DNA of 61,447 nucleotides, counting the filler, from an uncultured virus (IMG/VR IMGVR_UViG_3300005239_002421) (taxonomy: Duplodnaviria > Heunggongvirae > Uroviricota > Caudoviricetes). It is 6 parts of one record of this genome, joined end to end, with 100 filler letters (N's around TTAATTAATTAA, not from the genome) between each part and the next. Parts side by side here need not be neighbours in the genome. Positions count along the whole stretch, not along the records: positions 15,409 to 20,211 come from IMGVR_UViG_3300005239_002421; positions 20,312 to 32,107 come from IMGVR_UViG_3300005239_002421; positions 32,208 to 57,276 come from IMGVR_UViG_3300005239_002421; 3 more parts are not named here. One strand, written 5' to 3'. A program made the position numbers and the translations under genes. The notes under the pieces were generated by a model, which was not told the origin of the DNA, searched no databases, and saw only the letters and a list, made by a program, of their open reading frames with translations. This document shows positions 16,826 through 41,169 of the stretch, in pieces. Position 1 is the first letter of the stretch. Each line of letters begins with the position of its first letter.

Positions 16826-17332
16826 CTACTTCTTCAATAATAAATAGGCACCTACACCTATTGCTATATATAAAATTAAATCATTATTATCTTTTTTACC
16901 TTCAACCGGCTGCGGATTTACTACAACTACAGGAGTAGGTGTTACAGGAACTTCTGTAATAGGCTCAGTAACTACATTTTCTACAATAGGTTTAGTAGGA
17001 GGCGAGTAATTGATTCCTAACTCATCTACTGCTATAATAGGGTCATCTATATGATGTCCCTGAATAGGGTCAACAAACACAGGTGGACCTTTTACAATTG
17101 GTGTATTGCAAGGGTCTTTATCTAATGTCCATCCTTGAGGGCAAACTGTTCCGGGGAACATATTAGAAACCCCAAATCCTTTATCACACTTATTACATAT
17201 TACAGTCTGAGTAACAGGGTCTACAGGTCTAGTTGGTACACTTGGCACCGAAACAGGTGGTCGATAAGTTGGTACTACAACCCTACTTCGACCTTGAGTA
17301 GCTGCTGCTTCAAACCATAATTCATTTGACAT
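16826..17332 (-). CDS. Pro/Cys-rich protein with C-terminal TM (virion membrane candidate)
   Basis: Starts MSNELWFEAAA; ends LILYIAIGVGAYLLLKK. Confidence 0.65.
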   Translation of the reverse strand: MSNELWFEAAATQGRSRVVVPTYRPPVSVPSVPTRPVDPVTQTVICNKCDKGFGVSNMFPGTVCPQGWTLDKDPCNTPIVKGPPVFVDPIQGHHIDDPIIAVDELGINYSPPTKPIVENVVTEPITEVPVTPTPVVVVNPQPVEGKKDNNDLILYIAIGVGAYLLLKK

Positions 17333-17525
17333 ATCTTTTTATTTTTTATTATTTAATCTAATCCTACTAATTCATCAATAGTTTTGCCATCGAAATATTT
17401 ATCTTTTAAGAAATTATCATAAAAACCAACCAAGGCTACAATAGCTAATAAGTTAAAAGCTACTTGATATTCAAAAGGGGCTAAACCACCTTTTTTTAAT
17501 TTATTGTATGACCTTTTATTCATTT

Positions 17526-17741
17526 TTAATCTTCATTTATATTCCAATCTTGCTGAGGCTTTACGGCAATTATTTTAGATGAATTTTCTTCTTTTAATTC
17601 TTTTTTTACTAATTTTATTCTTAAAACATCTAAATATGTTTTTACAATATAAGAAACTCCTATAGCAATTGCAATAGAACCTCCTACTGTTAGTATTTTT
17701 TGAAGATGACCTTCTTCTAAATAATCTTCCCACTTAGCCAT
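17526..17741 (-). CDS. Small membrane protein
   Basis: Single TM segment. Confidence 0.6.
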   Translation of the reverse strand: MAKWEDYLEEGHLQKILTVGGSIAIAIGVSYIVKTYLDVLRIKLVKKELKEENSSKIIAVKPQQDWNINED

Positions 17742-17862
17742 TTACAATGTGTTTTTAGTTATTGTAATATTTTTTGCTATATATTCTTGGTAAATCATAT
17801 AAGCACCGTACCCTGCAAGAGCATATTTTATTATTGAAAACATAGTATATTATTTTTATTTG

Positions 17863-18369
17863 TTATGCTCCACAAGAACCACAAGCATTACTCATATTTG
17901 AAGTTTGCCAATCAGTACCTTGTAGGTTTCCTGATGCATTACTCATATTAGAAGTTTGCCAATCAGTTCCTTGTAAATTTGCTCTTCTTGCTCCGTTTGC
18001 ATTTGAATAACCACTTCTTCCCGGCATAGCCGCTAACCAAGTAGCTTCCCAACCTGCACTTGGTTTTCTTCCCGGAATAGCTGCTAACCAATTGTTATCT
18101 CTACTAGGTATTGCTTTAACATTAGGTGGACCATAAGGAATCATATATCCTCTTCTTGCTCCTGATGCGTTTTGGAATACTCCACCATCTTGCCACATAG
18201 TTTCTCTGTTTCTACCACTTTGTTGCCAATTAGTTCCTGTGAAACTTGAAGTTGGTTCAGCACCTTCAATTGGTGGAACTGTACTTGTTTTTGGTTTAGA
18301 GAAATGCTCGTAAGCTGCATATGCTCCAAATCCTGCTAGTCCGTAAAGACCGATTTTCATTAAATCCAT
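17863..18369 (-). CDS. N-terminal TM protein with repeated NAxG motifs
   Basis: FQNASG, YSNANG, MSNASG, MSNACG; tandem NLQGTDWQTSNMSNA x2 and WLAAxPGR x2. Confidence 0.75.
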   Translation of the reverse strand: MDLMKIGLYGLAGFGAYAAYEHFSKPKTSTVPPIEGAEPTSSFTGTNWQQSGRNRETMWQDGGVFQNASGARRGYMIPYGPPNVKAIPSRDNNWLAAIPGRKPSAGWEATWLAAMPGRSGYSNANGARRANLQGTDWQTSNMSNASGNLQGTDWQTSNMSNACGSCGA

Positions 18370-18388
18370 TTTTCTTTTTTTTTATTGA

Positions 18389-18802
18389 TTAATAATTATT
18401 TAATTTTTGTTTAATAGGTATTTCTAAAACTTCGCTACCTTGAAATTTATATTCATTTTCAGGGTACATCATTTGCGAGTTACCTAAGTTGTCTATTCCC
18501 CAAACAGGAAAATCCACATCTTTCATTGTGATTCTTCCATTTGGAATGAGATTATAAGGTTTGTTTATGTCCTTACTATCTCTTTTATAACCTGTAACAG
18601 AATATATGTCACCATTAAATCCTAATGATGCGGTTCCTCCTATTGGCAAACCTCCAATTACTCCACTATCAGGTACAGTCACAACATAAGGTTGTGATTG
18701 TCTATTAGAATCAAAAAAGTTGTCACCTTCGTTAAACCAAGAATCTCTTGTGTCTAACAAATTAGATACATCAGCATAGCCATCTTTAATAATACTATCC
18801 AT
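18389..18802 (-). CDS. Hypothetical protein with conserved-looking C-terminal beta domain
   Basis: GYKRDS..NLIP..ITMKDVDFPVWGIDNLGN..MYP..Y.F.G..V.EIP. Confidence 0.65.
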   Translation of the reverse strand: MDSIIKDGYADVSNLLDTRDSWFNEGDNFFDSNRQSQPYVVTVPDSGVIGGLPIGGTASLGFNGDIYSVTGYKRDSKDINKPYNLIPNGRITMKDVDFPVWGIDNLGNSQMMYPENEYKFQGSEVLEIPIKQKLNNY

Positions 18803-18968
18803 TTAATCCTCTTTTGTCTAATTCTTCTTTTACTATTTTCTTTACACCCGGTCTAAAAACATATATTTCTGCCCACATTTCAAGAGCAACAAAGGCACCT
18901 ACTGCTACTGCTACTGTACCCCAATTTATTTTATCACCGAATAACTTCATATTACCTTTTATATATTA

Positions 18969-20045: not shown

Positions 20046-20311
20046 TTTATTTATTTTTTATTTTTTAAAAACTCCTTTTGTGTAGGCATAATATACACCT
20101 GCACCAATAATTGCAACCCAAACTAAAGTCGGTAATCCCATAAATCCTGCTTTTTTTGTTTTACCATCTGCAACTTCTGTGGTAGTAGATTCTGCTGCTA
20201 CTATTTCAGTTNNNNNNNNNNNNNNNNNNNNNNNNNNNNNNNNNNNNNNNNNNNNTTAATTAATTAANNNNNNNNNNNNNNNNNNNNNNNNNNNNNNNNN
20301 NNNNNNNNNNN

Positions 20312-22054
20312 ACCACCTTTAGCGAAATCATCATCTTGCTCTCTATCTTCTTGAGCATCATAATAATCTAAAGTTTCATTATTTAAAGTATCAATCAGAA
20401 TAACATCCATTTTATATAAATATTTACTTCTTTCATTTATAAACTCATCGTATGCTTCATCATAATCATTTCCTCTCCATAAATCATTTCTGCCATCAAG
20501 AGAAACAAGATATCTTCCATCTACCATCCCACCTTTAGCATATTTATTTTTCCATTTATTATTGGCGGTTTTTATATAATCTTCCTTGATGGCTATTTCT
20601 TCAAAATTATCATCATCAACATTATATCCGTGTCGTTCAAATTTTTCTTTCAAATCTTTATCAGTATATCTAACTCTTTTATCATAAGTATATTTAGGGT
20701 CTTTTATTCTGCCGCCTTTTGCATAATCTTCTATAATTACATCATCATAACCTTTTTCTTTCCACTCTTTTGCCAATCTCTCGGCTTCTTCTTCGGTTAA
20801 TTCTTCTCTACCATCTATATCTAAAGGCATATCTCCTACCCACACAATCTTACCACCTTTTGCATAAGATTTTTCATTTACTCTTTTAAGTAAATAAGTC
20901 TGCCAATCTTTCTCATCTTTCGTAAGCATATCTCTTCTACTCTCCCTATTCCAATCCTCTCTAATCTTTCTTCTTTCATCTAAATCAATTCTATCTAAAA
21001 CATAATGAGTGAACCTTTCATAATCTCTATCAAAATCATCATAAGTTTTCATAATCTTACCACCTTTAGCGAACTCTAATTTCTCTTTTTTATAGACTTC
21101 ATATGGAAATACAAATTGAGCAGAATACAACTTCATTTCACCTTTCTTCCAAAGTTCTTTTTCTTTTTCATTAGGTGCAGAAAACTCATCCCAATCACTA
21201 CCTTTTTCGTGCTTTACAAGAGCACTTGTTTGAATAGTATCTTCATCAACATAAAAATCCTCTTCTTTCATATCTGCGTATGAAACAAAATCATTTAAAG
21301 TTTCAAATAAATCTTTTTTATTAGTAAACTTAGTTTTATATGGAAAATCATTTTCACCTAAGTAATATGAATGAAATTGGTCTTGCTCTCCCTCTTCATA
21401 AGAATCTTCATAGAAAGTAACATCAGCACCCTTTATTTGGTATGTTTTTCCTACTTCTCCACCTTCTTCAAGTAAATCCGGATTAACATATTCTTTAGCC
21501 ACCATCATCTTTACGGGTATTTGTCTTTCGACTAAACTATCAACGGCTCCTTGTTCATTATATTCATTACTCATTATATAGCCATCCATACTGCTCCAAA
21601 CTAATCCTTGATTTTCTGCCTCATCCATAAACTCATCATCGCTTAATTCATCAGCATATCTTTTAAATTGATTGTAAGTGAAGAAACCTTCATCTGCATA
21701 CATATCTGCTCTCATATCAATAGCATAAACCCTTTCCTCAATCGTACCGCCTTTAGCAAATTTTGCTTTTTGTTTCTTAGCATCTTGAACGGTTTTGTAT
21801 ATGCCTCCTAAATCTTTCTTGATGTCTTTAATAACATTCTCATTATCCTTAATAGATTTTTTTTCTCTATCAATGCCACTCTCTAAATTGTTAATTTGAT
21901 TTTCAGAACCTGTAATGTCTTTACGAATGCTTTTTATCTCTTCCCTTCCTTCATTGATTTCTTTATCGCCTTTTTTAGCAACATTACCCATAGCTTTAGC
22001 AAGTTCAATTTGACCTCCTCTTTCGTAACTATTATTTCTATTTCCTCTTTTCAT
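20312..22054 (-). CDS. xxGG-repeat polyprotein B (3' end in gap)
   Basis: 8 motifs (YERGG, FAKGG x3, LEEGG, YAKGG x3) separating acidic modules. Confidence 0.8.
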
Positions 22055-22056
22055 AA

Positions 22057-23148
22057 TTATCTTCCTATAAAAAATGCACCAAGTAAAATACCTGCTATCC
22101 CTCCTACAAGTAAAGTTTGATTATTATTATCTTCAGTATTATCAACTTTTTTTGCTTCTACTTTTTCAATTTTATCATCACATTTATCTTTAGTGATAGT
22201 TTCTTTTCTTAAAGCACCTTTTTCCTTCTTTAGTTTAGCAATTTCTTTGTCTTTTTCTCTTCTTAGCTTAACATATCTATCTCTGTCAATTTTACCTTTA
22301 ACAGAACCTCCTCTTGCATATTGTTTTTCTGTATAAAATTCTTTTATGTTATCCTTTAACCCATACTGCTCTTTAAGTTGCTCTTGACTATTTTTACCAT
22401 CATATATTATGTCGCTATTTAACATATAATTTAAATTTTCTACTTCTTTTTCTGCCTCTGCTTTAGATTTATAAAGCATATCCTTATTTGTTGCAAAGAA
22501 ATTTTTATTTTTTGTTCTTCCCTTTATCACATAACCACCTTTTACAGAGCCACCACGAGCCATTTTTCTTTTGCCTTTATCCATTGTAGATACATCTGCA
22601 TACTTTCTTCTGCCCATAGATTTTTCAGTTCCTGCACTTTCTCTCATTCTACTATCTAAAGATTGAGATTTTTTTCCTCTGTTTCTTTCTCCTATGCTTT
22701 CTCTATCTCTGTCATCATAACCTTGAGTTTTACCACCTTCCATAAACATTCTATCTCCATTATCCATAGTTTCTACACTTGAATATGCTCTACGACCTAG
22801 ATTTTTATTAGCTGCTTTGCTTTCATCTCTTCGGTCTTTTAATGTTTGTTTATAATTGCTTTCTCTTCCAAGTCTAGTTCCTAAATCTTCATTTAACTTG
22901 TCGTTATACCCTTGTGGTTTAGCGGTTTCTCCTCCTTTAGCCATCTTTTTCTTATTTGCTATTTGTTGCATATTTAAAGCAAATTGTGCTCTTTCACGAG
23001 TTCTTTCTGAAAAGTCAGTTGGATTATCTTTTACTTTTTTAGCAAAATCTTGAACGGACATACCTGCATCAGTAGCTTGTTTAGTAAACGCACCAACAGT
23101 TCCTTTTTTTTCCATTTCTTTATCTACATTTTGAATCCAATCTGCCAT
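22057..23148 (-). CDS. xxGG-repeat polyprotein C with basic modules and C-terminal TM
   Basis: MAKGG, FMEGG, MARGG, YARGG; duplicated QGY.D..RR.Y..V.TMD module; ends LLVGGIAGILLGAFFIGR. Confidence 0.8.
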   Translation of the reverse strand: MADWIQNVDKEMEKKGTVGAFTKQATDAGMSVQDFAKKVKDNPTDFSERTRERAQFALNMQQIANKKKMAKGGETAKPQGYNDKLNEDLGTRLGRESNYKQTLKDRRDESKAANKNLGRRAYSSVETMDNGDRMFMEGGKTQGYDDRDRESIGERNRGKKSQSLDSRMRESAGTEKSMGRRKYADVSTMDKGKRKMARGGSVKGGYVIKGRTKNKNFFATNKDMLYKSKAEAEKEVENLNYMLNSDIIYDGKNSQEQLKEQYGLKDNIKEFYTEKQYARGGSVKGKIDRDRYVKLRREKDKEIAKLKKEKGALRKETITKDKCDDKIEKVEAKKVDNTEDNNNQTLLVGGIAGILLGAFFIGR

Positions 23149-24877: not shown

Positions 24878-25327
24878 TTAATCGTTAAACCACATTTGGT
24901 CATTATATCCTCCAAAACCTTGTTGATTAAAATTAGAGTATGATTCTCCATCAAATCCTATACTAGTTCTTCCTCTAACGGAGCCACAACTTGCAGGGCT
25001 ATTACTATAATTACCCAAAGAACCACAGTTACCTTGAGATGTTAGTGTTGTAAAGTTTGAACCCGGCATTGGTATTCCCACACCTTGACATCCTTGTGGA
25101 TAGCAAAATCCTGTGTAGGTACAACTTCCATCATCATTATTTGCTCCCGGACTATAATTGTTTGCACTAGAATCAGTACAACCGCTAATAGTATATTCAC
25201 ACGGACAATCAACAGTTGGTGGTGGTGGTGGTGGTGGTACATTTATATTTGCTGCTGCATTAAAGAATTCATCTCTTGAAATGTAAGAGTTAAATCCATC
25301 TTGGTCGTTATTTATTAAAAAAGCCAT
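24878..25327 (-). CDS. Cys-rich GCTD-repeat protein, paralogue of 31602-32060
   Basis: GCTDSSANNYSPGANNDDGSC; ends SNFNQQGFGGYNDQMWFND. Confidence 0.75.
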   Translation of the reverse strand: MAFLINNDQDGFNSYISRDEFFNAAANINVPPPPPPPTVDCPCEYTISGCTDSSANNYSPGANNDDGSCTYTGFCYPQGCQGVGIPMPGSNFTTLTSQGNCGSLGNYSNSPASCGSVRGRTSIGFDGESYSNFNQQGFGGYNDQMWFND

Positions 25328-25345
25328 TTTTTTTTATTTTTTATA

Positions 25346-26119
25346 TTAATAATCTCCCATCATAAAGGTTCCATCAAATCCTCTACTGTAATCAACATTA
25401 ACAGGTGTATTTCCTCCTGTTGTTGGAGTAGTTGGGTTAGAACATCCGACTGTTGCATTAGGATTATAGTTATCTGCCAATGGGTCAGTACATCCTACTA
25501 TTTGAACAGGAGGATATTGACAACTTCCATCATCTGCAACTGCTAAAGAATCATAGTTTAATGCTGAAGGGTCCATACATCCTGCTATTGGCATTGGTGG
25601 TGGATTGTATGCACAAGTACCATTGTCTGATGTAGCATTATAATCAAAATTTAATGCTTGTGGGTCAGTACATCCTAATATAGGAGCAGGTGGATAAAAG
25701 CAACTTCCATCATCAAGTGTTGCTAATGGGTTATAAGTGCTTGAATTTGGGTCTACACAACCTAAAACATCAGCAGGAACTTCAGTAGATGGGTCACCAT
25801 ATTGACATAATGGAAAGCCATTTGCATCTAATATATCAGGCTCTGAATTCGCTAAAGGGTTATAAGTGATTGAATTTGGGTCCATACACCCTACTATAAT
25901 ATTTCCACTACCCGGAACAACAACTTGTCCGGAAGTTGGTAGTGGTGGTACAAATATTGGGTCATCAAGAAGTGGTGGTAACGATGGAACAGTTGGGTCG
26001 ATTGGTGGCAATGTTGGTTCGGTATTGCTTACTATAGCAACCGTTTCATCCTTTTTCTTGTTAAGAAGTAAGTAGGCAGCCACACCGATGCCTAATAATC
26101 CCAATAATTTGTTGTCCAT
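25346..26119 (-). CDS. TM-anchored protein with five GCxD..NY..A..DDGSC-type repeats
   Basis: Repeats read directly; ends RGFDGTFMMGDY. Confidence 0.8.
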   Translation of the reverse strand: MDNKLLGLLGIGVAAYLLLNKKKDETVAIVSNTEPTLPPIDPTVPSLPPLLDDPIFVPPLPTSGQVVVPGSGNIIVGCMDPNSITYNPLANSEPDILDANGFPLCQYGDPSTEVPADVLGCVDPNSSTYNPLATLDDGSCFYPPAPILGCTDPQALNFDYNATSDNGTCAYNPPPMPIAGCMDPSALNYDSLAVADDGSCQYPPVQIVGCTDPLADNYNPNATVGCSNPTTPTTGGNTPVNVDYSRGFDGTFMMGDY

Positions 26120-27595: not shown

Positions 27596-28081
27596 TTAGC
27601 CTATAAAATCACTTGTAGATGCCGTAACATCAATAGGTAAATTATTTATAGTTACTATTCCTGCTCTTACATCTAAGCTACCTCTAAGAGTTGCCATTCC
27701 CGGTGTCTTATCTACTAATTGATTTATTATTGTTGCAATACCTAATGATAATGATAAATTAGTGTCTGCATTCGCTACTACAGGAATTATTACTGAACCT
27801 TTTGCAGGAATATTATATTCTTTATCATCAGATGATTTTGCAACTATCTTATTATCAATAATTAAATCAAATTGATACCTTTTTACTTTTATATTAAAAT
27901 CCGCAGTATTTGTGAATTTCATTTGAACTTCTATTTTAGTATTGTTATTAGATGTGCCTAAATATGTTACATTTTTTATCTTATATCCAAATGCTGATAG
28001 CAAATTTCTTTGTCTATTTATATAAGTTGCAAATGCAATACCGGCAGCCCCTAAAAGTGTAATAAACCAATACTTTTTCAT
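27596..28081 (-). CDS. LEA_2/WHy-domain membrane protein
   Basis: N-terminal TM, then F.N...FNIKV..Y.FDL.ID..I...IPAKGSVIIPV. Confidence 0.7.
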   Translation of the reverse strand: MKKYWFITLLGAAGIAFATYINRQRNLLSAFGYKIKNVTYLGTSNNNTKIEVQMKFTNTADFNIKVKRYQFDLIIDNKIVAKSSDDKEYNIPAKGSVIIPVVANADTNLSLSLGIATIINQLVDKTPGMATLRGSLDVRAGIVTINNLPIDVTASTSDFIG

Positions 28082-28087
28082 AGTTAT

Positions 28088-28846
28088 TTAGTCGTTATAA
28101 AATTCCGGTTTTGGTCCTGATGCTTTAATTGCCATATATCCTAATGTTGCAACAACTCCTGCCACTAAGACCCATCCAATAATTTTAGTTGTGCCATCTC
28201 CACCTAATGATGCTTGAGTAGTTGTAGTGGTTGTTCCTGCATTTACATTTGCATTAGGGTCAAATTGTGGAGCCTGTACCCCCGGTTTTGTCATATTTAC
28301 TCCTGTTGAAAACCCTTTATTTATACTATCAAATATATTACCTATTGTACTCCAAGTATTTTGTTTTCTATCATCAATTTGTGCTTGAGTTAAACAAGTA
28401 TTTCTTGAACTAGAAGTCCATCCTGCCGGTTGCTGACCTTTTGGAAATTGTTGACTGATTGGCATACCATTTTGGCAAGTATGATAAGTTCTCATACCAT
28501 CTCCACCAAAAATTCCTGATATAAATCCACCTCCACTAGAACTCTCTTCTGTAGCAGGAACTGTTCCTAAATCTACAGGAGGTAATTCACCTCCATCAAC
28601 AGTATCGTTATCTCCTCCACCAAATATTCCGCCTAAAAATCCGGGGTGATTACTCCAAGCATCATCTTGTACCTCTCCTGTAAAACTATTGTATTCAGCA
28701 GTACCATTTAATCCATCTCCTTGGTCAACAGAATTCGCTTGAGTATCAGGATTACCTCTTAATCCAAAAGGATTTGGTAAAGGATTATGAAATGTATAAT
28801 CTTGGGAATCTCCAAAGAAGTTTAAATATTTATCTTCACTTTTCAT
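28088..28846 (-). CDS. Gly-rich protein with C-terminal TM
   Basis: SFTG and WSNHPGFLGG motifs; TM near the end. Confidence 0.7.
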   Translation of the reverse strand: MKSEDKYLNFFGDSQDYTFHNPLPNPFGLRGNPDTQANSVDQGDGLNGTAEYNSFTGEVQDDAWSNHPGFLGGIFGGGDNDTVDGGELPPVDLGTVPATEESSSGGGFISGIFGGDGMRTYHTCQNGMPISQQFPKGQQPAGWTSSSRNTCLTQAQIDDRKQNTWSTIGNIFDSINKGFSTGVNMTKPGVQAPQFDPNANVNAGTTTTTTQASLGGDGTTKIIGWVLVAGVVATLGYMAIKASGPKPEFYND

Positions 28847-29512: not shown

Positions 29513-30812
29513 TTAATAATCTCCTAGCATAAACTCTCCATCAAATCCTCTTGTGGGTGTAGCTATATTNNNNNNNNNNNNNNNNNNNNAAACCTCTTGT
29601 TGAGGAAGATATGTTTGTATTGTTTTTAATTTGTGTTTGTATTGGTTTAGTCGGTAACGGTGGCAATGTTGGACTCGTAGGTCTTGTCGGTCTTGTTGAA
29701 CCTTGTTCGCAACATCTTTTTAGTATATCGTATGCCTGATTATATGATAGTGTAAATCCAATACCTGCTGCATAAGTAGTAAATGTGCTTACTACATTTG
29801 GTATAGCAGTTTGTGGCTGACCGAATGCACTAGCATTTCTGAATTGTATGCAAAATTCTTCAGGTACATTTTCACAAGAATAATCGCCTGATTGGTTAGA
29901 TGGTTCACAACAAGAACAATAATCTGTTCCATTTGCTTGGTCATAGTACCAAGTTCCTGTATTTGGATTCCAACTTACAGGGAAACTTCCATTTCCGGCT
30001 CTACATCTATCACAGTAATTATTTTTACCATAGTTATAATTTGGCTGACCAATTGTTCCTCCCATTGCAAGATTTACCCAATTTGGGTCATTACAAGGGT
30101 TATCACCTGTGTTACCATCACGACAACATTTTTGTAATAAACCATATGCTTGGTCATAAGTAAGAGTAACTCCATAACCACTTGCGTAAGTAATAAATGG
30201 TATTACAGTTCCTTGCATATTAGGTGAATCTTTTCCAAATGCAAATGCTTGATTAAACTTAATGCACCATTCTTGTGTTACATATGAGCAATCAAAAGAA
30301 ATCGGGTCATCTGTAGGCTCATCTATTGGTAATTCATAACCTTTACATAAGCATCTTTCAGCTAATAAAGCCTTTGCTTGTGCGTTGTCAATATTATACA
30401 TTGATGCTACTGTAGCAGCTATTGTATTCATAGCACCGCCATTTCCTGAAATATAGGCTTGATAATATTTATCACAATATGCATCAACATTTGAATAATC
30501 ATTTACAGGAGGTACTGAAATAGAAGGTCTTACAGGTCTTACAGGTTGAGCCGTTTGACCCAATGGTATTTCACGATTATATACTTGAGGTATTGATGGT
30601 TCTATACCACCTGTACTTAAAAGCATATCTATGTAAGAAATTTTGTTTACTAGAAGTTGTTGCCATTCAGGGTATGTTCCTGCTGATGCTAATCCATTAA
30701 GTGTATTAACATTTACATTTCTTCTGTTTTGTAAAAATGAAACCCCAAACTTTTTAAATCCATCAATCATATTGTTCTGAAATATAACGGATGGTTGAAT
30801 ATCTTCGTTCAT
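29513..30812 (-). CDS. Cys-rich repeat protein
   Basis: Likely start MNEDIQ; three C..QA...LL..C(C) helical repeats; frame after the gap ends RGFDGEFMLGDY*. Confidence 0.7.
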
Positions 30813-30813
30813 A

Positions 30814-31308
30814 TTATATATTATTTTTATTACCAAACAATCCTTTAGTGTAAGCATAGTATATACCACCTGCTGCTAAAAGCAATACAATTATAAGTTT
30901 GGTATTACTACTACCCATTCCTGCTTCTAATACATCTCCCTCAGCCCCTGTTGTTTCAACTGAACTTGTAACTTCTGTATCATCAGAAGTAGATGCGGCA
31001 CAATCCTTATAAAAATCAAGCCTGTCTTGATTAGATGCAAATTTCATTGTCATAGCTGCATCTACACAACTTTGTGGAATTTTAGTTGTTGTCCCACCCT
31101 CTCTAAAACCTGCATTTGGGTTATTAGGATTACCACCTCTTCTATTAGGTGGATTTGTTCTTGCATTTATATAATCTTCAACCTCAGAGTTCATTTCTAT
31201 TTCACCTGATGCTACTGCATCTTGAACTACCCTTATTTGGGCTGCACGAACTGCCGGTGAGTCAAATCGGCTTCCACCTTGATTGCTTCTTCCTCTTATA
31301 AATGCCAT
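30814..31308 (-). CDS. C-terminal TM protein
   Basis: Ends EAGMG..LLAAGGIYYAYTKGLFG. Confidence 0.7.
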   Translation of the reverse strand: MAFIRGRSNQGGSRFDSPAVRAAQIRVVQDAVASGEIEMNSEVEDYINARTNPPNRRGGNPNNPNAGFREGGTTTKIPQSCVDAAMTMKFASNQDRLDFYKDCAASTSDDTEVTSSVETTGAEGDVLEAGMGSSNTKLIIVLLLAAGGIYYAYTKGLFGNKNNI

Positions 31309-31601: not shown

Positions 31602-32060
31602 TTAATCGTTAAACCACATTTTGTCGTTATATCCACCAAATCCTTTTTGGTTGAAATTTGAGTATGAGCCACACCCACCTGCATTATAAAATGTTCCATC
31701 AAAACCTACAGTTGGTCCTGTACTTACAGGTCCTGAAGATGCTCCTCCTAATACATTTCCGTTACAATCTACATTAGCACTAGGGTTGTAATTAAGTGCT
31801 GATGGGTCAGCACATCCTGAAACAGGTGCTATACAAGAACCATCATCTTGATTTGCGTTAGGATTATAGTTTAAGCTACCTGCGGTAGTACATCCTAATA
31901 TTGGTGCAGGTGCATATTGACAAGGGCAACTTGCACTTGCATTACCACCACCTACTGATGAATTACCAAGACCTGTTGATATAGTTCCTGCTACTCCTCC
32001 GCCTATTGCTCCTACTTGATTAAGCCAAGCATAATTTTCATTGTTTCTTAAAAAACTCAT
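31602..32060 (-). CDS. Cys-rich GCTD-repeat protein
   Basis: WLNQVG, FYNAGG; ends GFGGYNDKMWFND. Confidence 0.75.
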   Translation of the reverse strand: MSFLRNNENYAWLNQVGAIGGGVAGTISTGLGNSSVGGGNASASCPCQYAPAPILGCTTAGSLNYNPNANQDDGSCIAPVSGCADPSALNYNPSANVDCNGNVLGGASSGPVSTGPTVGFDGTFYNAGGCGSYSNFNQKGFGGYNDKMWFND

Positions 32061-34428: not shown

Positions 34429-35022
34429 TTATTTTTTTAAGACAAGAACTAAAAGCATAATTCCTACTAATGCTCCTGCACCTATCATTAAATTCTTTTT
34501 TTCTTTATCGGCTTTTGCAGTTTCACGATTTATTAAAGCCTGTGCTTCATTAAATGTTCTTTCAGTTGCTGCTGCCGAGTCCTTACCCAATTGTGTTAAT
34601 TGCTCTCTTATAGCATCTAGTTCTTTGTTTTTTTCTGCTACATCTTCAATACCTGCATCAATAGAAGAGCCTACTGTAGTATTTACCTGACAATCTCTAG
34701 CATCCATAAAACTAACTACTTTACCTTTGTGGAATGTAGCTGCTTTTCTTTTTCTCTTAGGAACTCTACTATTACCTGTATTAGAGTTGTAGATGTCTTG
34801 GAAGAAATCTTTACACTCTTGTAAGTCTACACAACTATCTCCTGCTGCGTAATCACAATCAGCTTTTTGATTTGCCTCTTCGGTTTTATATCTGTCACTT
34901 TCGGCTCCTTTGGGGTTAGTTATATCTTTAAACCAAGACCCTCCAATAAATCCGGGATGATTTAAGAATTCACCATCTGTAAGAGATGATACATTTTGAT
35001 TTGAATCACTATCTAAAAACAT
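34429..35022 (-). CDS. Coiled-coil C-terminal TM protein (family with 35026 and 36454)
   Basis: FLNHPG; FMDARDC. Confidence 0.7.
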   Translation of the reverse strand: MFLDSDSNQNVSSLTDGEFLNHPGFIGGSWFKDITNPKGAESDRYKTEEANQKADCDYAAGDSCVDLQECKDFFQDIYNSNTGNSRVPKRKRKAATFHKGKVVSFMDARDCQVNTTVGSSIDAGIEDVAEKNKELDAIREQLTQLGKDSAAATERTFNEAQALINRETAKADKEKKNLMIGAGALVGIMLLVLVLKK

Positions 35023-35025: not shown

Positions 35026-35835
35026 TTATTTCTTTTTTAATATTAATACTGCAATGACTATAACTGCTCCAATCATAATCATTTTATTTCTTTTTGCTAA
35101 CTCAGCATTATCTTCTGCTGCTATTGCTGCTGCTGCATCTGACTCTTCTTTTATTAGTTCTATTTCTTGATTATATGCTGCATCTGATGTTTCTTTTTCT
35201 ATTTGTGCTAATTCTGCTGCTGCTTCTGCTTCATCTTGTGCAATTTGAGCAGTATCAATAGCTGAGGTTGTGCCATTACAATCTCTTGCATCCATAAATC
35301 CTGAAACCTTACTTAAAGCATCAGAAATTTCACTTAAATATTTTGCTCTATAATCTCTATCAAATTCGTGTACTACCGAAGCATTACTCCAATCATTCAT
35401 TAAAGAATTTAAATTTTCAGTAACACTAACATACTCTGCACAAGTCATATCTGAAGTAAATGGAACTAAGTTTTTTACTCTTGATTTAACTGAATTAAGA
35501 CTACTACTCATAGTAGCTAAATTAAGTCCGTGTGAGTTTAAACTTTCAGCTTTTGTATCATATGCTTCTTTTATTGCTTGATTTGAAGAATAATCTACAA
35601 TTTTGAAGCCGGGTGTTTGGCACATAATACCCATAAAACCTCTACAAGCAGTAAATCCTGCATTTGAGAAACCTGACCTACCGGGGAAAATCTTATATTT
35701 TATAACAAATTCTCTGTAATTTACATTTGCAGCAGCATTATAATATTCTCCACTTGCATAAAGTGAGTTGTCCTGCATTGCATCTGTGTCAAAATTTCCA
35801 AAACTATTTGCGTTAAAGTCGCTATCTATAAACAT
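35026..35835 (-). CDS. Coiled-coil C-terminal TM protein
   Basis: Starts MFIDSD; YYNAAA; FMDARDC. Confidence 0.7.
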   Translation of the reverse strand: MFIDSDFNANSFGNFDTDAMQDNSLYASGEYYNAAANVNYREFVIKYKIFPGRSGFSNAGFTACRGFMGIMCQTPGFKIVDYSSNQAIKEAYDTKAESLNSHGLNLATMSSSLNSVKSRVKNLVPFTSDMTCAEYVSVTENLNSLMNDWSNASVVHEFDRDYRAKYLSEISDALSKVSGFMDARDCNGTTSAIDTAQIAQDEAEAAAELAQIEKETSDAAYNQEIELIKEESDAAAAIAAEDNAELAKRNKMIMIGAVIVIAVLILKKK

Positions 35836-35845: not shown

Positions 35846-36115
35846 TTAATTATCCATTACACCGTTTTTGAAACGGTATGCCCCAAGTTTTAATCCTTCT
35901 ACTCCTCCAAACTTAGATTTTGTTTTACAATCTTTATTTGTGAAAATTCCATCTCCACTATCATCCATACTGTCACAACCTCTATCCCAAGTTAGTACAG
36001 GCTCATATGAATACTTATCTCCTCCTACAGTAATAACTGCATCTCCGGATTGATTAAACCAAAGTTCTGTACTATTTTGTGCTCCTGATTGATTAAACCA
36101 TAAATTGTTTTCCAT
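35846..36115 (-). CDS. Small protein with two LWFNQSG motifs
   Basis: Likely start MENNLWFNQSGAQNSTELWFNQSG. Confidence 0.65.
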   Translation of the reverse strand: MENNLWFNQSGAQNSTELWFNQSGDAVITVGGDKYSYEPVLTWDRGCDSMDDSGDGIFTNKDCKTKSKFGGVEGLKLGAYRFKNGVMDN

Positions 36116-36125
36116 TTTCTTTTTT

Positions 36126-36449
36126 TTAATAATCTCCAAACATAAAATCACTACTACCACCAAATCCAAACCACACATCTGAATTGGCTTTTGTTCCTCC
36201 ACTTGCATTTAGCATAGATGGAGTAATATTTTGATAAGGGTCAATCACACTTGTATTAACTCTTGTAGATGTATTACCTGCAACTGCATTTCCTGTTGTA
36301 ACACTATATTGTTCAGTTGGACCACCAATACCATCTCCACCAAAAATTGATGAATAATCGCATCCGCTTCCATCAGGTAAACTACATAATGGATAGCAAG
36401 GGTCATTTGTAACATATTGTCCGTTACATAACATTGTTTTGTTGCTCAT
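36126..36449 (-). CDS. Cys-rich small protein
   Basis: MLNASG; ends WFGFGGSSDFMFGDY. Confidence 0.65.
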   Translation of the reverse strand: MSNKTMLCNGQYVTNDPCYPLCSLPDGSGCDYSSIFGGDGIGGPTEQYSVTTGNAVAGNTSTRVNTSVIDPYQNITPSMLNASGGTKANSDVWFGFGGSSDFMFGDY

Positions 36450-36453: not shown

Positions 36454-37143
36454 TTATCTTTTTATTACTTTATAAATACCATATCCAACTGCTCCAAGAA
36501 CTAAAAATCCAAGCATTAAGTTTGTAGGACTATTTAGACCTCCTGTTGCTGCTGCGGATTGTGTAAATAATTGTTGTTGATTAGCCAAATTGACTTGTTG
36601 TGCTTGTTGTTCTGCAATACAAGCTGATTCCATAGCATCTTTTATACTTGGTCTACGAATACCTCTTGTTTTTCTTGCTCTTGCATTAACTCTTTTAGAA
36701 CCTCTACTTCCGCCATCTTTATTGGCTTCTAATCTATCTACATCTCCATCTAATCTTTCTAAACTTGATGTAAGAACCGCACAGTTTCCTGTATTAGGAT
36801 ATTCTGCATTTACTTTAGCTTGTTCTTTAGCTTCTCGTTCTCTTTCAGCTTTCTTTTTACTCCAAGTTATTCCTAAAAATCCGGGATGGTTACTCCATAC
36901 ATCACTATCAGGCATTGAATTATTATCATCATCAGTTAAGACCATATTTGGTCTATTTCCAATATGATGGTCTAATGTGATTGATTCTTCTCCTGATGCA
37001 TTAAAAGCAGTACCAACTATCTGAGATACTCTTACTGCTTCTTCTTTTGTTACATTTCCTGCTTGATTTGACCAAACTGTGTTACCCCAAGGCATATCAT
37101 TTGGCACATCTGAAGCATCCATATTTAAAAAGTTATTGTCCAT
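36454..37143 (-). CDS. C-terminal TM protein with several N-x-x-G motifs
   Basis: WSNQAG, FNASG, WSNHPG. Confidence 0.7.
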   Translation of the reverse strand: MDNNFLNMDASDVPNDMPWGNTVWSNQAGNVTKEEAVRVSQIVGTAFNASGEESITLDHHIGNRPNMVLTDDDNNSMPDSDVWSNHPGFLGITWSKKKAEREREAKEQAKVNAEYPNTGNCAVLTSSLERLDGDVDRLEANKDGGSRGSKRVNARARKTRGIRRPSIKDAMESACIAEQQAQQVNLANQQQLFTQSAAATGGLNSPTNLMLGFLVLGAVGYGIYKVIKR

Positions 37144-37304: not shown

Positions 37305-37790
37305 TTACTTAGCAGCCGTACCGCCTTTTCTAATTGAATAACCAATTACAAATGCAGTTAAACCAATTCCTAAATATCCCATCAATAATTTACCTACACT
37401 CATTTGCATATTTGAACTATCTCTTCCGGAGAATCTTCTGTAAATTATTCCTGAGCCTGTTGGCAATGGTTTTACAGGTGTTCTTCTGTCCATTAGTGGC
37501 GGTAATAGTCTTTCATCACCTGCCGCATTTTGGAATACTCCACCATCTTGCCACATAGTTTCACGATTTCTTCCTGATTGTTGCCAATTAGTACCCGTAA
37601 AACTTCTAAAGTTTTGTCTTTGCCCTCTTGGACCATATCTTAATGAGCCTTGTGAAGGAACTCCTCTTGTTTTTGATATTCCTCCTCCTTCTACTCTTGC
37701 ATCGCAAGGGTCACATCCTCCTGAAGAAGTCATTTGCCCAAAACAACTTGAGCCATCTGCCAATATTCTGCTACAATTATATGCTGCCAT
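37305..37790 (-). CDS. Cys-rich N-terminus, C-terminal TM protein
   Basis: Contains a 27-aa block identical to one in the ORF at 17863. Confidence 0.7.
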   Translation of the reverse strand: MAAYNCSRILADGSSCFGQMTSSGGCDPCDARVEGGGISKTRGVPSQGSLRYGPRGQRQNFRSFTGTNWQQSGRNRETMWQDGGVFQNAAGDERLLPPLMDRRTPVKPLPTGSGIIYRRFSGRDSSNMQMSVGKLLMGYLGIGLTAFVIGYSIRKGGTAAK

Positions 37791-37808: not shown

Positions 37809-38639
37809 TTATCTACTTGCTTTCAAATTAGGTGTACTATTCTGAGTGCAAAATTTATTTCTTTCAAAATTTGTTATAAACTGATTTAAAATGTCAAATC
37901 TTTCTTTATTTTGAGGTGTTGGAGTGTCCTTAAATGTTGTAAGGAAACTTTGATAAGCCTCTATTCTTGGATAACCAAGAGCCAAATAAATTAATAATCC
38001 ATTCAAATCTGCTTCTGTTTCATCTTCCATATTCTCATTCAAATAAAAATGAGAAAACTCGTGTAATAGAATTGCCATTCTCATTGGAACAGTAAACTTT
38101 TTATAATGTGCTTTGCTTACTTGTATAATTCCTTTTGACTGACTAATTCTTGCAGGGGTTTGTATTACCAAACCTCTTTTTGTTCTAATATCATCAAAGT
38201 AATCTATTCTAAAATTACCCTCATCTGAGATATATGTGCTTCCGTTTGGAAACTTTCCTGCACTTAATATTCCTGCGTTGTCTGAGAATTGTTGAGCAAA
38301 ATTTGCAAAATCTCTTATTTTTGGATTACTCCAATCAACACAATCCATTTTTCTTTCTAATGGTCTAGCATCTATTTTTACAACTTTAAATGATGCATCT
38401 TGACCCTTTTTCAAATTACCGTTAGCTTTATTATATACACTTATAAGTGCTTCATAAGGAGATAAAGGCATTCTAACGAAGAATCTTTGCTTACCATCAA
38501 TAGTTGCATATCTATTAGTATAATCAGTATTAGGCTTATTAATATCCTTAACTACTATCTGAATTTTTTGAGGACTATTTGTTACGACCTCTATCATAAT
38601 AGTTAACGATTTTTGCTTTGTTTTAAATAAAATATTCAT
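37809..38639 (-). CDS. Zinc metallopeptidase (HEXXH), candidate virion maturation protease
   Basis: ILLHEFSH..ETEAD zincin pattern, located in the structural module. Confidence 0.75.
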   Translation of the reverse strand: MNILFKTKQKSLTIMIEVVTNSPQKIQIVVKDINKPNTDYTNRYATIDGKQRFFVRMPLSPYEALISVYNKANGNLKKGQDASFKVVKIDARPLERKMDCVDWSNPKIRDFANFAQQFSDNAGILSAGKFPNGSTYISDEGNFRIDYFDDIRTKRGLVIQTPARISQSKGIIQVSKAHYKKFTVPMRMAILLHEFSHFYLNENMEDETEADLNGLLIYLALGYPRIEAYQSFLTTFKDTPTPQNKERFDILNQFITNFERNKFCTQNSTPNLKASR

Positions 38640-38767
38640 TTCTTAATTACCAAAATTATTAAACCTAATAATATGACTCCTCCTACTAACCTTAATCGAG
38701 TTACTGATATACCCTTTATTTGCATATCCATTTCTTCTCTTTCCAAAGGTTGTAGTGCCACTTATCA

Positions 38768-39076
38768 TTACTTTTTAAAATTTATAATACTCTCCTTTGC
38801 TATGTAACCTCCGGCTAATCCTCCGGCTAAAACTCCCATCCATACACTTTTCTTTCTCCATAATGATAGAATAGCCCCTAATACACTTCCTAATACTGCT
38901 CCTTTCAACATCTCTTTAGTGCTATCTTTAACTAAAGCTGCCTTTCCATCATCTACAATCGTACTGATACTTTCTTGTGTTTCAGTTGGCATTGTCATTC
39001 TGTTTGTGACATTATTTTGTCCATCAAAAGAAATTTCCTGAGCCTCATCAAAAAGATTTACTTCGCTATCAAACAT
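38768..39076 (-). CDS. Two-TM glycine-zipper membrane protein
   Basis: GAVLGSVLGA..GVLAGGLAGG. Confidence 0.7.
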   Translation of the reverse strand: MFDSEVNLFDEAQEISFDGQNNVTNRMTMPTETQESISTIVDDGKAALVKDSTKEMLKGAVLGSVLGAILSLWRKKSVWMGVLAGGLAGGYIAKESIINFKK

Positions 39077-39087
39077 ATTTCAAAGAA

Positions 39088-39783
39088 CTAATTTTGTACT
39101 GCCGGTGATGAACTTCCTTTTCTACTATTATATAAAGCAAAACCTATAACTGCTAAAACCCCAACACCTAATAAAATAAATACAACTTTGCTAGAGCCTC
39201 CTAAACCTGCTTGAGTTGGCGGTAATACAGTTTGATTTGCACCTAATTCCATTTGCTGCAACATCAAATCTCTATTCATTCCTGCAAGTTCTAATTCGTG
39301 AGCCCTTTGCTTTCCTGCTTCTTTATAGCTTTTATTTCCTTGCCAAATACCTGCAATTGTAGATAATACCTGAACTCCTCCGTTTAACCATTGTCCGCCT
39401 GTAACTCCTGCTCCTGCACTTACCGGTGGGGCAGGAACACCTGCTTGATTCATAAATCCATCTCTAGGCGAATCCGTGTCCATTGGACTAATTTCTTCTG
39501 CACCTTCAATAAATGGCAATTGATTAGCTAAAACTAATTTCATAATTCCTAGCCTTACACATTCACTTGTTAAATTGTATGCTACTGCCGTAACTAATTC
39601 AACTTTTCCTGCTCGTGAAGAAACTCTCACACCACAGTTAATAAGTGTTTTTCGTACTAAAGCCGGTCTACCCTCTATCACTTTAGCAACTTCGGATAAC
39701 ATTAACTCTCTCGTTATAGCCATATCTTTTGTTTTATTTATTGCTTTAAAATTTTCTTTAAAATTATGATGCTCATATCTCAT
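39088..39783 (-). CDS. Virion membrane protein candidate
   Basis: FMNQAG; amphipathic segment and C-terminal TM. Confidence 0.7.
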   Translation of the reverse strand: MRYEHHNFKENFKAINKTKDMAITRELMLSEVAKVIEGRPALVRKTLINCGVRVSSRAGKVELVTAVAYNLTSECVRLGIMKLVLANQLPFIEGAEEISPMDTDSPRDGFMNQAGVPAPPVSAGAGVTGGQWLNGGVQVLSTIAGIWQGNKSYKEAGKQRAHELELAGMNRDLMLQQMELGANQTVLPPTQAGLGGSSKVVFILLGVGVLAVIGFALYNSRKGSSSPAVQN

Positions 39784-39784
39784 A

Positions 39785-40294
39785 CTACTTTTTTGCTATT
39801 ATATATCCTACCGCAAAACCAACGGCTAATAAAAGAATTGGAGATGTTTGCATTTCTTTCATTTTTCTATCTCTTGCTCTCCTATCTCTTTTTAGCTTTT
39901 CTCTAAGTATTTCTTTTTTTACTTCTTTTATTTCACTTACTACCTCTTTTGCATCAAAATTAGAACTTGATGTATTAGGCTCAAATGAAGATGGAGCCTC
40001 CGGTTTAAATGGGGTTGGCTCTACAACTTCAGGTTCAGCAAATCCCGGTGTTCTACCTGTTGCATAAGCGAAATCTTTATCTGAACCAAATGATTTAGTG
40101 AAAGACTCTAATAAAGACTTATCAGGATGAATTTCACTAATATCTTGTAAGGCAACTTTTTTGTATTTTCTTACAATTATTTTTAATCTGCTAATTAACT
40201 CACTTATACTGTTGGTAGCTTGAAAACCATAATTACTTAAAAGTTCATTAGCCCCTGAAGAATTATTATGTGCTATGTATGTGTATAAATTCAT
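39785..40294 (-). CDS. C-terminal TM protein downstream of capsid gene
   Basis: YIAHNN..A..LL..YG..IHPDK; terminal TM. Confidence 0.7.
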   Translation of the reverse strand: MNLYTYIAHNNSSGANELLSNYGFQATNSISELISRLKIIVRKYKKVALQDISEIHPDKSLLESFTKSFGSDKDFAYATGRTPGFAEPEVVEPTPFKPEAPSSFEPNTSSSNFDAKEVVSEIKEVKKEILREKLKRDRRARDRKMKEMQTSPILLLAVGFAVGYIIAKK

Positions 40295-40332
40295 TTTTAT
40301 CTTTTTTGTATATTTTTAATTTATCTTTTAGT

Positions 40333-40385
40333 AAAAAAAAAATGGGGCTCGAAGAAAATGCCTTTGCATCTACCTCTGCCCCATT
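40333..40385 (-). terminator. Rho-independent terminator after putative major capsid gene
   Basis: AAUGGGGC..GAUGC-AAAG-GCAUU..GCCCCA hairpin followed by a 10-U tract. Confidence 0.85.
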
Positions 40386-40419
40386 TAATATCTAATCTCT
40401 AAGAATTAATAACTTAATA

Positions 40420-41169
40420 TTAACCCTGTAATGCACGAGCAACTCCTTGACCAAGAACAATCTTGTCTTGTCTTACAACATTTGGATTACCATAACCACG
40501 AGCAATTGAATTGCCTGTTAGAGCACGACCTTGAGAAACAGTTTCAGATGGGAACAAGTAGACTTTTAAAGTCGCTTTTGCTGCAATACTGTTAACTGTT
40601 AATGTAGTAAAGCCATCCCACTTATAGGTATGCTTTAATACAGTAATGTCTGTTTGGTTTTGGTAAGGGTCAATTGTAGGAACAAGAGTTTTTTGTTGTT
40701 GATTACCATTAGAGTCAACTACTTTTACTACGATAGTTTCTAGGACCTGTGTTGAGCCTCCATCACTTTGTAGGTAAGTTAATCCAACCACGAATGGTTT
40801 AGATGAACTTTGCCATAAAAATTCAAGATAAGTTACACCTGAAATAGCCATATTATATAGGATATTTGCCGTGTTACCTGCTTCACCTGCCGGAATACCT
40901 CCACCTGCTGCGATTGCGGTTACCTTAGTTATCGTGTTATATGCTCCACCAATTTCAACAGATGCTACATCTGCTGCCGTAGAGTTATATAATGAGATAA
41001 TGTAAGGTTGTGATGAACTAGCATCAGCCGAACCCATTGCGTTTAAGTATTCTTCTTCAGAACCACCAAAGTCAAAAGCATCATCCCAATCATTTACACC
41101 ATTAGCTGACATAAATTCGTTTGAAATGTTTTCTTCTGCATCAGAGAAATAACGGTTTAAATTTTCCAT
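40420..41169 (-). CDS. Putative major capsid protein (single beta-sandwich/jelly-roll-like) with acidic N-terminal propeptide
   Basis: Beta-rich; high-expression-type codons (GCT, CGT, AAC); own promoter and terminator; near the packaging ATPase; has a paralogue. Fold is inferred, not computed. Confidence 0.6.
   Translation of the reverse strand: MENLNRYFSDAEENISNEFMSANGVNDWDDAFDFGGSEEEYLNAMGSADASSSQPYIISLYNSTAADVASVEIGGAYNTITKVTAIAAGGGIPAGEAGNTANILYNMAISGVTYLEFLWQSSSKPFVVGLTYLQSDGGSTQVLETIVVKVVDSNGNQQQKTLVPTIDPYQNQTDITVLKHTYKWDGFTTLTVNSIAAKATLKVYLFPSETVSQGRALTGNSIARGYGNPNVVRQDKIVLGQGVARALQG

Follow-up and report, generated by a model that had tools for sequence, protein, structure and literature searches.

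A six-residue motif recurs in the structural block of an uncultured virus (IMG/VR IMGVR_UViG_3300005239_002421), in products that include its putative coat protein, far more often than protein composition predicts, and it is kept in a tighter form among the relatives of this virus. The window analysed here is the whole stretch of DNA taken from that genome, 61,447 nucleotides with filler included, and the motif is concentrated in a run of minus-strand genes at positions 16826-41169, which includes the gene for a conserved HExxH protein that resembles a zinc protease of the zincin type. The motif, or tag, is probably a short linear signal that one viral factor reads in trans. It is a closer call, falling a little below even chances, that this factor is the zincin-like protein and that it trims its substrates at or beside the tag; the zincin activity, its reading of the motif and any cutting are what we infer from the evidence set out below.

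Occurrence of the motif in the window

The motif was first written as [WFYM]-x-N-[AQH]-x-[GA] in a reading made from the sequence alone, and every instance claimed there is present, all on the minus strand: WFNQSG (three copies), WSNHPG (two copies), FLNHPG, WSNQAG, WLNQVG, FMNQAG, FQNASG, FQNAAG, YSNANG, MSNASG, FYNAGG, MLNASG, YYNAAA, FFNAAA and YLNAMG. MSNACG and FRNASA, which were not on that list, match as well, and the block 16826-41169 holds 20 matches in 14 of its 48 genes. Genes were taken to be the non-overlapping minus-strand open reading frames (ORFs) of at least 40 residues, called as longest ORFs, which gives 104 in the window. Shuffling each protein of the block separately leads to an expectation of 1.13 +/- 1.05 matches with a maximum of 6, and none of 2000 shuffles reaches 20. 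The rest of the window holds 4 matches in 56 genes where 0.83 are expected, a count that 16 of 2000 shuffles attain.

Identical motif peptides are encoded with synonymous codons that differ from copy to copy, which points to selection on the protein and rules out a DNA repeat as the origin of the motif. Some instances are paralogous, namely those of genes 17863-18369 and 37305-37790 (about 25 identical residues), a trio reading NHPGF[LI]G and a pair reading E[FY][FY]NAAAN, so that the independent contexts number about 9-10 rather than 14.

Recurrence across the family

Two sets of related loci were compared. The distant set has 55 loci taken from viral contigs, with coat identity of 28-45%, and the close set has 54 loci from metagenome contigs, with coat identity of 67-100%; close relatives turn up in many contigs of marine metagenomes. 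The pattern as first written occurs 196 times in the distant set against 34 expected and 263 times in the close set against 19 expected. The sequence-only reading was prepared to give the motif up if homologues did not conserve it; they do, in both sets.

Since the loci are related, their 1956 proteins were grouped by BLAST single linkage into 464 clusters, each with one representative, and all 160,000 patterns of the form a-x-b-c-x-d were counted on the representatives without regard to any prior pattern. FxNAxG and YxNAxG each occur in 11 clusters where 0.91 are expected (P ~4e-9) and take ranks 5-6 of the 160,000. The patterns ranked around them are of membrane-helix or low-complexity type (AxGGxV, TxTTxT, PxPPxP), and [FY]xNAxG is the best-ranked pattern that is not of low complexity. 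In all, [FYW]xNAxG is found in 32 of the 464 clusters and in 161 proteins. Matches in cluster 20, which consists of long fibre-like proteins such as YSNQIGSSNVAVG, were set aside as lying in a repeat-type context.

The forms in the distant set are more uniform than those of the window (FSNADG, FFNAGG, FANADG, FLNASG, YSNANG) and reduce to [FY]-x-N-A-x-G. The motif as originally defined is thus real and too broad: W at position 1 and Q or H at position 4 are lineage-specific, the final Ala is derived from Gly, Met at position 1 marks a weak member, and Asn is preferred without being essential. The change is lineage-wide: in the window lineage 12 of 21 matches have N-[QH] and 8 of 21 begin with W, where the distant relatives give 6 of 188 and 2 of 188, respectively. 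A shift of variant across many proteins of a lineage at once is what would be expected if all of them answered to one reader, and to judge from the sequences this suggests a shared reader.

A related motif, [SG]F[DTN]G, had also been said to recur. It does so in the block (8 against 0.96 expected), and its recurrence family-wide is weak (16 against 6.1 expected on cluster representatives). The MLNASG site reads MLSFDG or QLGFDG in some orthologues, and [SG]F[DTN]G at that site is therefore a variant of motif positions 3-6.

Conservation and sequence context

With clusters equally weighted, the three residues before the motif (-3 to -1) are acidic in 21-28% of cases against a background of 11%, and are otherwise G or S, and basic residues are all but missing from positions -1 to +5 (0-2% against 13%). 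G, S, N and D abound in the flanks, as do insertions and deletions.

Within this loose surrounding the fixed positions stand out. For YLNAMG they are 0.95 identical among 37 distinct close homologues, against 0.50 at the x positions. Measured against the flanks instead, the fixed positions of the variant copy FAYATG score 0.92 against 0.54, those of FMNQAG 0.76 against 0.30, those of FLNHPG 0.92 against 0.56 and those of the second WFNQSG 1.00 against 0.64, all among close orthologues; for the WSNHPG of gene 36454-37143 the figures are 0.98 and 0.76 in 25 distinct orthologues. At the two instances in 31602-32060 the fixed positions are no better conserved than their surroundings among close orthologues.

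Orthologous sites also reveal which substitutions are tolerated. Orthologues of 39088-39783 have FMNQxG, FMNADG or FMNHPGF at one and the same site, so NQxG, NAxG and NHPG interchange, and the YYNAAA site reads YKNAAG, YSNAIG or YANASG. In nearly all of 44 distinct orthologues of 39785-40294 the motif column is [FY]-x-[NG]-[AVFM]-x-G. Asn gives way to G, S, Y, R or K at orthologous sites with the rest kept (FLGADG, FAYATG, YFRASG), and another cluster has YFRASG and YFKMSG at the motif site, which leaves the aromatic residue and the Gly as the most constant parts. Copy number is variable, with one to three copies of WF[NSG]Q[NSA]G in a single linker among orthologues, the mark of local duplication; some distant orthologues are without the whole motif-bearing insert, the motif being gained and lost within orthologous groups. 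The features by which short linear motifs are usually recognised are found here: a disordered segment (on the coat model, where this was modelled), fixed positions better conserved than flanks, and recurrence in non-homologous proteins.

Topology and gene placement

Membrane helices were called with a hydropathy window. C-terminal anchors are found in 21 of the 43 motif-bearing clusters and in 99 of all 464 (odds ratio 4.2, P 2e-5), whereas N-terminal ones, likewise present in 99 of the 464, are found in 4 of the 43 (P 0.05); in the window a C-terminal helix is found in 7 of the 14 motif genes. We infer that the tagged part of such tail-anchored proteins is cytoplasmic, which in a virus with a capsid around a membrane vesicle would be the capsid-facing side. 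Placement along the genome is equally uneven: among recurrent clusters, defined as those with five or more members, the strict motif is carried by 13 of 46 at or after the coat gene and by 1 of 39 before it.

A second, Gly-Gly motif marks other proteins. [FYM]A[KR]GG has 99 matches in 24 proteins of 12 clusters in the family, and the separation of the two sets that had been noticed in the window is complete, no window gene and none of the 1956 family proteins carrying both. To call these two sorting codes overstates the coverage, since many membrane-protein clusters of the block are untagged. As to its arrangement, copies of [FYM]A[KR]GG lie about a domain apart in large proteins, most of them soluble (20264-23148, with nine copies, 13364-15210 and 52969-56741, all minus strand), and likewise in the related loci L001, L002, L006 and L012, and they have the look of joints in polyproteins or between repeated modules. 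Among the gene products of the window no cysteine protease was identified.

The putative coat protein

The product of 40420-41169 has 870 homologues in metagenome protein collections, and an identical gene lies on a 91.9 kilobase (kb) contig, L056. Its first 30 residues carry a net charge of -7. Structure models were made with AlphaFold2 (AF2) for this protein and the 37809-38639 product. The coat model is a beta-sandwich with a mean predicted local distance difference test score (pLDDT) of 62.6; residues 14-52 fall below 50 and the first strand spans 56-62. YLNAMG had been described as closing the acidic N-terminal arm just ahead of the first strand, and this is where it lies, at residues 41-46 and about nine residues ahead of the first modelled strand. 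Distant homologues have F-D-M-A-x-G or F-F-N-A-G-G in the YLNAMG column, and most coat proteins of the distant set carry two motif copies, near residues 19 and 37. The N-terminal helix before the arm is strongly conserved, with Y7 and F8 invariant in the alignment (A1).

The name "capsid" rests on weak fold matches to the model. Foldseek found no PDB entry at E <= 0.001, and the best hit of a wider structural search has Z 6.5, with none at Z >=8; the jelly-roll capsids of PR772, FLiP, PBCV-1, Faustovirus and phiCjT23 match at Z 5-6.5, a range that the search tool itself describes as common. In the ESM Atlas nothing scored above 0.78.

Several further observations concern the coat protein. Many distant homologues end in an Arg-rich tail of up to about 25 R/G residues (P0061, P0064, P0067 and P0083 in alignment A1), which the window protein does not have; the same homologues have longer poly-acidic N-terminal arms and hence opposite charge at their two ends. 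Within a 453-residue protein encoded at 10634-11995 on the minus strand there is a homologue of the coat core (hhalign probability 97.3%, E 1.7e-11): residues 178-284 of the larger protein align to coat residues 95-203, with TPTIDPYQ and DGFT included. It also carries FANQSG. Its gene and the coat gene are 30 kb apart, and it may serve as another coat protein or at the vertices. IDPYQ, which is part of an invariant PTIDPYQ in the coat protein, occurs in this paralogue and again directly before MLNASG in the small Cys-rich protein of 36126-36449.

The HExxH protein

The HExxH gene is present in 40 of the 41 loci that extend at least 7 kb beyond the coat gene, at 42-51% identity. HE..H is found in 46 of 46 cluster members, and in 30 aligned sequences H193, E194, H197, E207 and D211 are invariant; a helix (207-220) follows the active-site helix, and E207 and D211 are candidates for the third metal ligand of a zincin. 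A profile search returned 829 representative relatives; among the matches listed for the zincin profile (150, all of them full-length family members) there is no link to a named cellular family. In the ESM Atlas the protein found its own viral clusters and one lead, DUF4344, scoring just 0.87.

The AF2 model is of good quality (pLDDT 90.8, predicted template modelling score 0.88). The structure that best matches the model as a whole is the catalytic domain of BepA, a zinc peptidase of E. coli belonging to M48 (PDB 6sar; Z 8.3, root-mean-square deviation 4.8, 119 aligned residues, model residues 124-261), and the next is the putative Zn peptidase 3c37 (Z 6.3, 19% identity). The HExxH helix is common to these M48 enzymes and the viral protein, and an invariant acidic residue on the next helix appears to be, whereas the viral protein has no sequence-family match, a borderline Z, an additional N-terminal beta-sandwich and neither tetratricopeptide repeats nor membrane domains. 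On the model it appears to be zincin-like and possibly M48-like, and not a member of M48.

Structure prediction of a complex, which the sequence-only reading had put forward as a check, was carried out for one pair, the zincin (alignment A2) with coat residues 1-62 (alignment A1). The score is 0.42 (runs at 0.42, 0.41 and 0.52), against 0.03 for the best of three controls; at least 33% of the contacts are shared between runs, and the partner pLDDT is at least 41. The score lies in the weak band of support, and no interface was returned. Among solved complexes 116 of 157 attain the mark in use for such scores, as do 2 of 215 mismatched pairs, a rough guide here, where our own alignments were used; scores of 0.60 or less account for 18 of the 157 solved complexes and for both of the mismatched pairs that pass.

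A model for reading of the tag

In the model that we favour, the tag would be [DEGS]-[DEGS]-[FY]-x-N-A-x-G family-wide, relaxed in the window lineage to [WFY]-x-N-[AQH]-x-G, and would occupy arms and linkers that are disordered and locally acidic, in the coat protein as well as in some ten further proteins of the particle. Among these carriers, many appear to be anchored in the membrane by their C-termini, which would leave the tagged parts on the cytoplasmic, capsid side. One common viral reader would recognise them, most likely the zincin-like product of 37809-38639 from the same gene block, which would bind the tagged arm and, as the particle matures, probably cut it at the tag or beside it. 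Acidic stretches would thereby be lost from the N-termini, in the coat protein residues 1 to about 41-47, and the mode of action would be that of the T4 capsid-targeting sequences, in which targeting comes first and trimming after. Zincins usually seat a hydrophobic residue in the S1' pocket. By that preference the likeliest cuts would be at the bond before the aromatic residue or between Asn and Ala, and either would place the N-terminus of the mature coat protein within residues 41-47.

Weighing the explanations

The zincin is favoured as reader for its co-occurrence in the same block, for acidic N-terminal stretches with the tag at their end, for the position of tags in linkers between modules and for the weak complex score. 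A good deal counts against it. The BepA match falls in a range of Z that the search tool describes as common, and the protein has no Pfam family at E <= 0.01, no PHROG, no relevant PDB entry by sequence (best E 1.1) and no Foldseek match in PDB at E <= 0.001. A tblastn search of 50,697 phage records with the coat protein, a candidate packaging ATPase (43452-44270) and the zincin gave zero matches and hence no cultured relative. The complex score, a matter of modelling, tilts the odds weakly towards the zincin binding the coat arm and does not imply the tag as the contact. The sole protease seen could equally well have its site at [FYM]A[KR]GG. The untagged membrane-protein clusters of the structural block belong here too, as do the tags at residues 5-11 of some proteins, which would make for trivially short propeptides, and the conserved helix at the coat N-terminus would suit a retained arm no less than a scaffold-like propeptide. 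That same helix, and the poor fit of extreme N-terminal tags to propeptide boundaries, speak for a docking signal that stays uncut. The tag would then form a strand and a tight turn, insert into a pocket in the jelly roll of the coat protein or in another assembly factor, and recruit the cytoplasmic arms of tail-anchored proteins along with the coat N-terminal arm into the growing particle, much as encapsulin cargo-loading peptides do. Everything known of the motif (enrichment, ranking, flanks, conservation, lineage shift) applies equally to docking, the bias to C-terminal anchors puts the tag on the capsid-facing side, and the two copies on distant coat arms and the variable copy number suit multivalent binding. 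We nevertheless consider docking without cutting, the main rival, rather unlikely, given that a conserved protease-like gene of the same block would then be without a known substrate; structural modelling bears little on the matter, the coat model being poor (pLDDT 62.6) and the zincin with the coat arm the sole pair predicted. By analogy with T4, docking and trimming could also be combined. A wider scheme, which is unlikely in our estimation, has two orthogonal codes, with [FYM]AKGG at the joints of large soluble multi-domain proteins and [FY]xNAxG on capsid-facing arms, the latter selecting membrane proteins that would dock to the coat or the zincin and then be trimmed.

It might also be that the motif has no common reader and is an Asn/Gly turn beside an aromatic residue, recurring in disorder rich in Asn, Gly and Ser and inflated by paralogy and by a pattern chosen after the fact. 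The composition of the flanks (G, S, N, D), the paralogy of several window instances, the post hoc fitting of the pattern and its absence from many orthologues are all as this explanation would have them. It is improbable even so, because composition-preserving shuffles yield 1.1 matches where 20 are observed, because an unbiased enumeration counted per cluster puts the pattern at the top of those that are not of low complexity, and because the fixed positions are more conserved than x positions and flanks, with basic residues excluded; the restriction to one gene block (13/46 against 1/39) and the lineage-wide shift of variant argue in the same direction. Very improbable, in turn, is a site of Asn modification, for instance cytoplasmic N-glycosylation at an unusual sequon by viral glycosyltransferases. 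In many instances no position is better conserved than Asn, and genes for glycosyltransferase-like proteins and methyltransferases lie near the coat gene of the window according to Pfam and PHROGs. The nearest analogue is a chlorovirus, PBCV-1, whose coat protein is reported to be glycosylated at the atypical site 280-NIPG (PMC9614988). An N-glycosylation sequon, however, has an indispensable acceptor Asn, and at orthologous sites of the motif G, S, Y, R or K takes its place while the aromatic residue, position 4 and the Gly stay, which makes Asn modification, and equally Asn-dependent self-cleavage, unlikely as a general mechanism. The Anp1-like glycosyltransferase of the window, moreover, clusters with proteins of only four loci of the distant set and the methyltransferases with those of none, whereas the motif is family-wide.

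The motif-bearing genes and their surroundings

The coordinates of the motif copies and of the three main genes are collected in Table 1.

Table 1. Motif copies and principal genes, with positions counted along the window
Feature	Position	Strand	Remarks
Putative single jelly-roll coat protein, 249 residues	40420-41169	-	N-terminal helix, disordered acidic arm with 2 motif copies, beta core from ~55
FMSANG, degenerate first copy	41098-41115	-	coat residues 19-24; equivalent to F-x-N-A-D-G of distant relatives
YLNAMG	41032-41049	-	coat residues 41-46
Conserved HExxH protein, 276 residues, candidate reader/protease	37809-38639	-	beta-sandwich 1-96, zincin-like helical domain ~100-260
P-loop ATPase, candidate packaging ATPase, core gene	43452-44270	-	DUF87 E 9.4e-4, weak HerA/FtsK-type
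FAYATG, variant copy	40055-40072	-	gene 39785-40294, C-terminally anchored
FMNQAG	39439-39456	-	gene 39088-39783, C-terminal transmembrane helix
FQNAAG	37518-37535	-	gene 37305-37790
WSNQAG	37057-37074	-	gene 36454-37143, C-terminal transmembrane helix
WSNHPG	36880-36897	-	gene 36454-37143; 25 distinct orthologues compared
MLNASG	36198-36215	-	gene 36126-36449
WFNQSG, 2 copies, at gene start	36044-36100	-	ORF 35846-36208
YYNAAA	35728-35745	-	gene 35026-35835, C-terminal transmembrane helix
FLNHPG	34951-34968	-	gene 34429-35022, C-terminal transmembrane helix
WLNQVG	32010-32027	-	gene 31602-32060
FYNAGG	31674-31691	-	gene 31602-32060
FRNASA, doubtful member	29826-29843	-	gene 29541-30869; within Cys-rich domain
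WFNQSG	29470-29487	-	gene 28855-29502, residues 6-11; C-terminal transmembrane helix
WSNHPG	28640-28657	-	gene 28088-28846, C-terminal transmembrane helix
FFNAAA	25250-25267	-	gene 24878-25327
FQNASG, YSNANG, MSNASG, MSNACG (4 copies)	17878-18177	-	gene 17863-18369

Some of the tagged genes have features of their own. ORFs 36126-36449 and 35846-36208 overlap, and in 15 of 25 close loci they are fused into one ORF of 153-197 residues; in the window lineage the split of this 35846-36449 gene falls exactly in the tag-bearing linker. The true start of ORF 35846-36208 is probably the internal MENNLWF, and the long start wrong. Genes 17863-18369 and 37305-37790 lie 19 kb apart and their shared, near-identical stretch of about 25 residues (SFTGTNWQQSGRNRETMWQDGGVFQNA...), which takes in a tag-like WQQSG, points to recent duplication or gene conversion. 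The NHPG variants (28088-28846, 34429-35022 and 36454-37143) are followed by a conserved GF[LI]GG[ST]W[FW]KD that the NA and NQ variants do not have and that may be an added amphipathic or membrane-binding element. Three paralogous proteins encoded at 24878-26119 and 31602-32060 contain Cys-rich GC[TM]DP.A.NY(N/D) modules. Their tails, of the form GF(D)G...F(M/N)(G)DY or SNFNQ[QK]GFGGYND[QK]MWFND, have many aromatic residues, Gly and Asn, and are possibly further tag-like elements.

The window is AT-rich, with a G+C content of about 30%, almost every long ORF lies on the minus strand, and several stretches are masked with N. Pfam and PHROGs identify a phage-type set for replication, recombination and lysis, with RecT, a PD-(D/E)XK nuclease, HNH and RusA on one side and an Amidase_3 endolysin and a DUF2272/CHAP protein on the lysis side, together with methyltransferases, a PAP2 phosphatase, a superoxide dismutase and a weak HerA/FtsK-like ATPase. 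The DUF87 match of this ATPase falls short of the Pfam cut-off and a PDB sequence search with it gave no match; the gene is present in 51 loci. Neither Pfam nor PHROGs picked out a gene of tail, portal, terminase or HK97 type in the window, and in the block 16826-41169 none of the 46 scanned proteins reached a curated Pfam threshold, 4 having weak PHROG matches. Many products of the block have a single membrane helix by a simple hydropathy scan. A tailless jelly-roll virus with many membrane proteins is a reasonable working label.

Elsewhere in the window lie genes for a PAP2-family lipid phosphatase (49148-50116), an Fe/Mn superoxide dismutase (15731-16402) and a LEA_2-like protein (27596-28081). 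The PAP2 gene is a core gene found in 47 loci of the family, and it fits a virus that handles membrane lipid.

Comparison with known systems

Literature searches for the motif and for viruses of this kind, the latter judged by listing and abstract, turned up no account of either; the jelly-roll viruses that they returned are known ones, none of which matches this group. Several established systems are nonetheless alike in part. In T4, capsid-targeting sequences on internal proteins are removed by the prohead protease gp21 at L/I-x-E, and the likeness consists in a short peptide on unrelated particle proteins, often near the N-terminus, and a viral protease in the structural block. The peptide here is [FY]xNAxG and the candidate a zincin-like HExxH protein, whereas that of T4 is a serine protease of the herpesvirus/T4 type; the window, moreover, shows no gene of tail, portal or HK97 type, and the putative carriers are mostly membrane-anchored. 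The giant phages phiKZ (protease gp175) and 201phi2-1 mature their heads by cleavage at S/A/G-x-E, many head proteins being processed at one short motif with loss of N-terminal propeptides, but these are tailed viruses with a serine protease and another motif, and their processing has been proven by mass spectrometry.

Adenain cleaves at (M/I/L)XGG-X and (M/I/L)XGX-G, the hyphen marking the cut, in pIIIa, pVI, pVII, pVIII, pX and pTP. Adenoviruses, which are jelly-roll viruses as the present one may be, resemble it in repeating across many virion precursors a hydrophobic residue with small residues and Gly behind it, and in having two related types of site in one virus, here as candidates. Adenain is a cysteine protease, however, a class that was not recognised here, the spacing and the Asn/Ala core differ, and of the two motifs in the window it is [FYM]A[KR]GG rather than [FY]xNAxG that comes closer to an adenain site. 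In vaccinia morphogenesis a cysteine protease, I7L, cuts at AG-X and a metalloprotease, G1L, acts beside it, so that a membrane-containing DNA virus has a Gly-based cleavage code and a separate virion metalloprotease, as would be the case here. Vaccinia differs in being a eukaryotic virus, and G1L has the inverted HxxEH of the M16 type with undefined sites. Encapsulin cargo-loading peptides, finally, dock uncut into a pocket of the shell and offer a model for docking, being short conserved peptides on unrelated proteins, yet they serve an HK97-fold shell, are usually C-terminal and involve no membrane.

Significance

Shared targeting or cleavage tags are known in T4, phiKZ and adenoviruses, and to our knowledge none has been described for tailless, membrane-rich bacterial viruses. 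What is seen here is a six-residue tag, a zincin-like gene and a disjoint Gly-Gly motif that are kept together across a very large family of uncultured marine viruses. One candidate enzyme, a defined peptide and a dozen candidate substrates make for a concrete, testable system. If it is true, the reading with two codes would answer how one group of membrane-containing phages sorts its membrane proteome, a question that has long been open.

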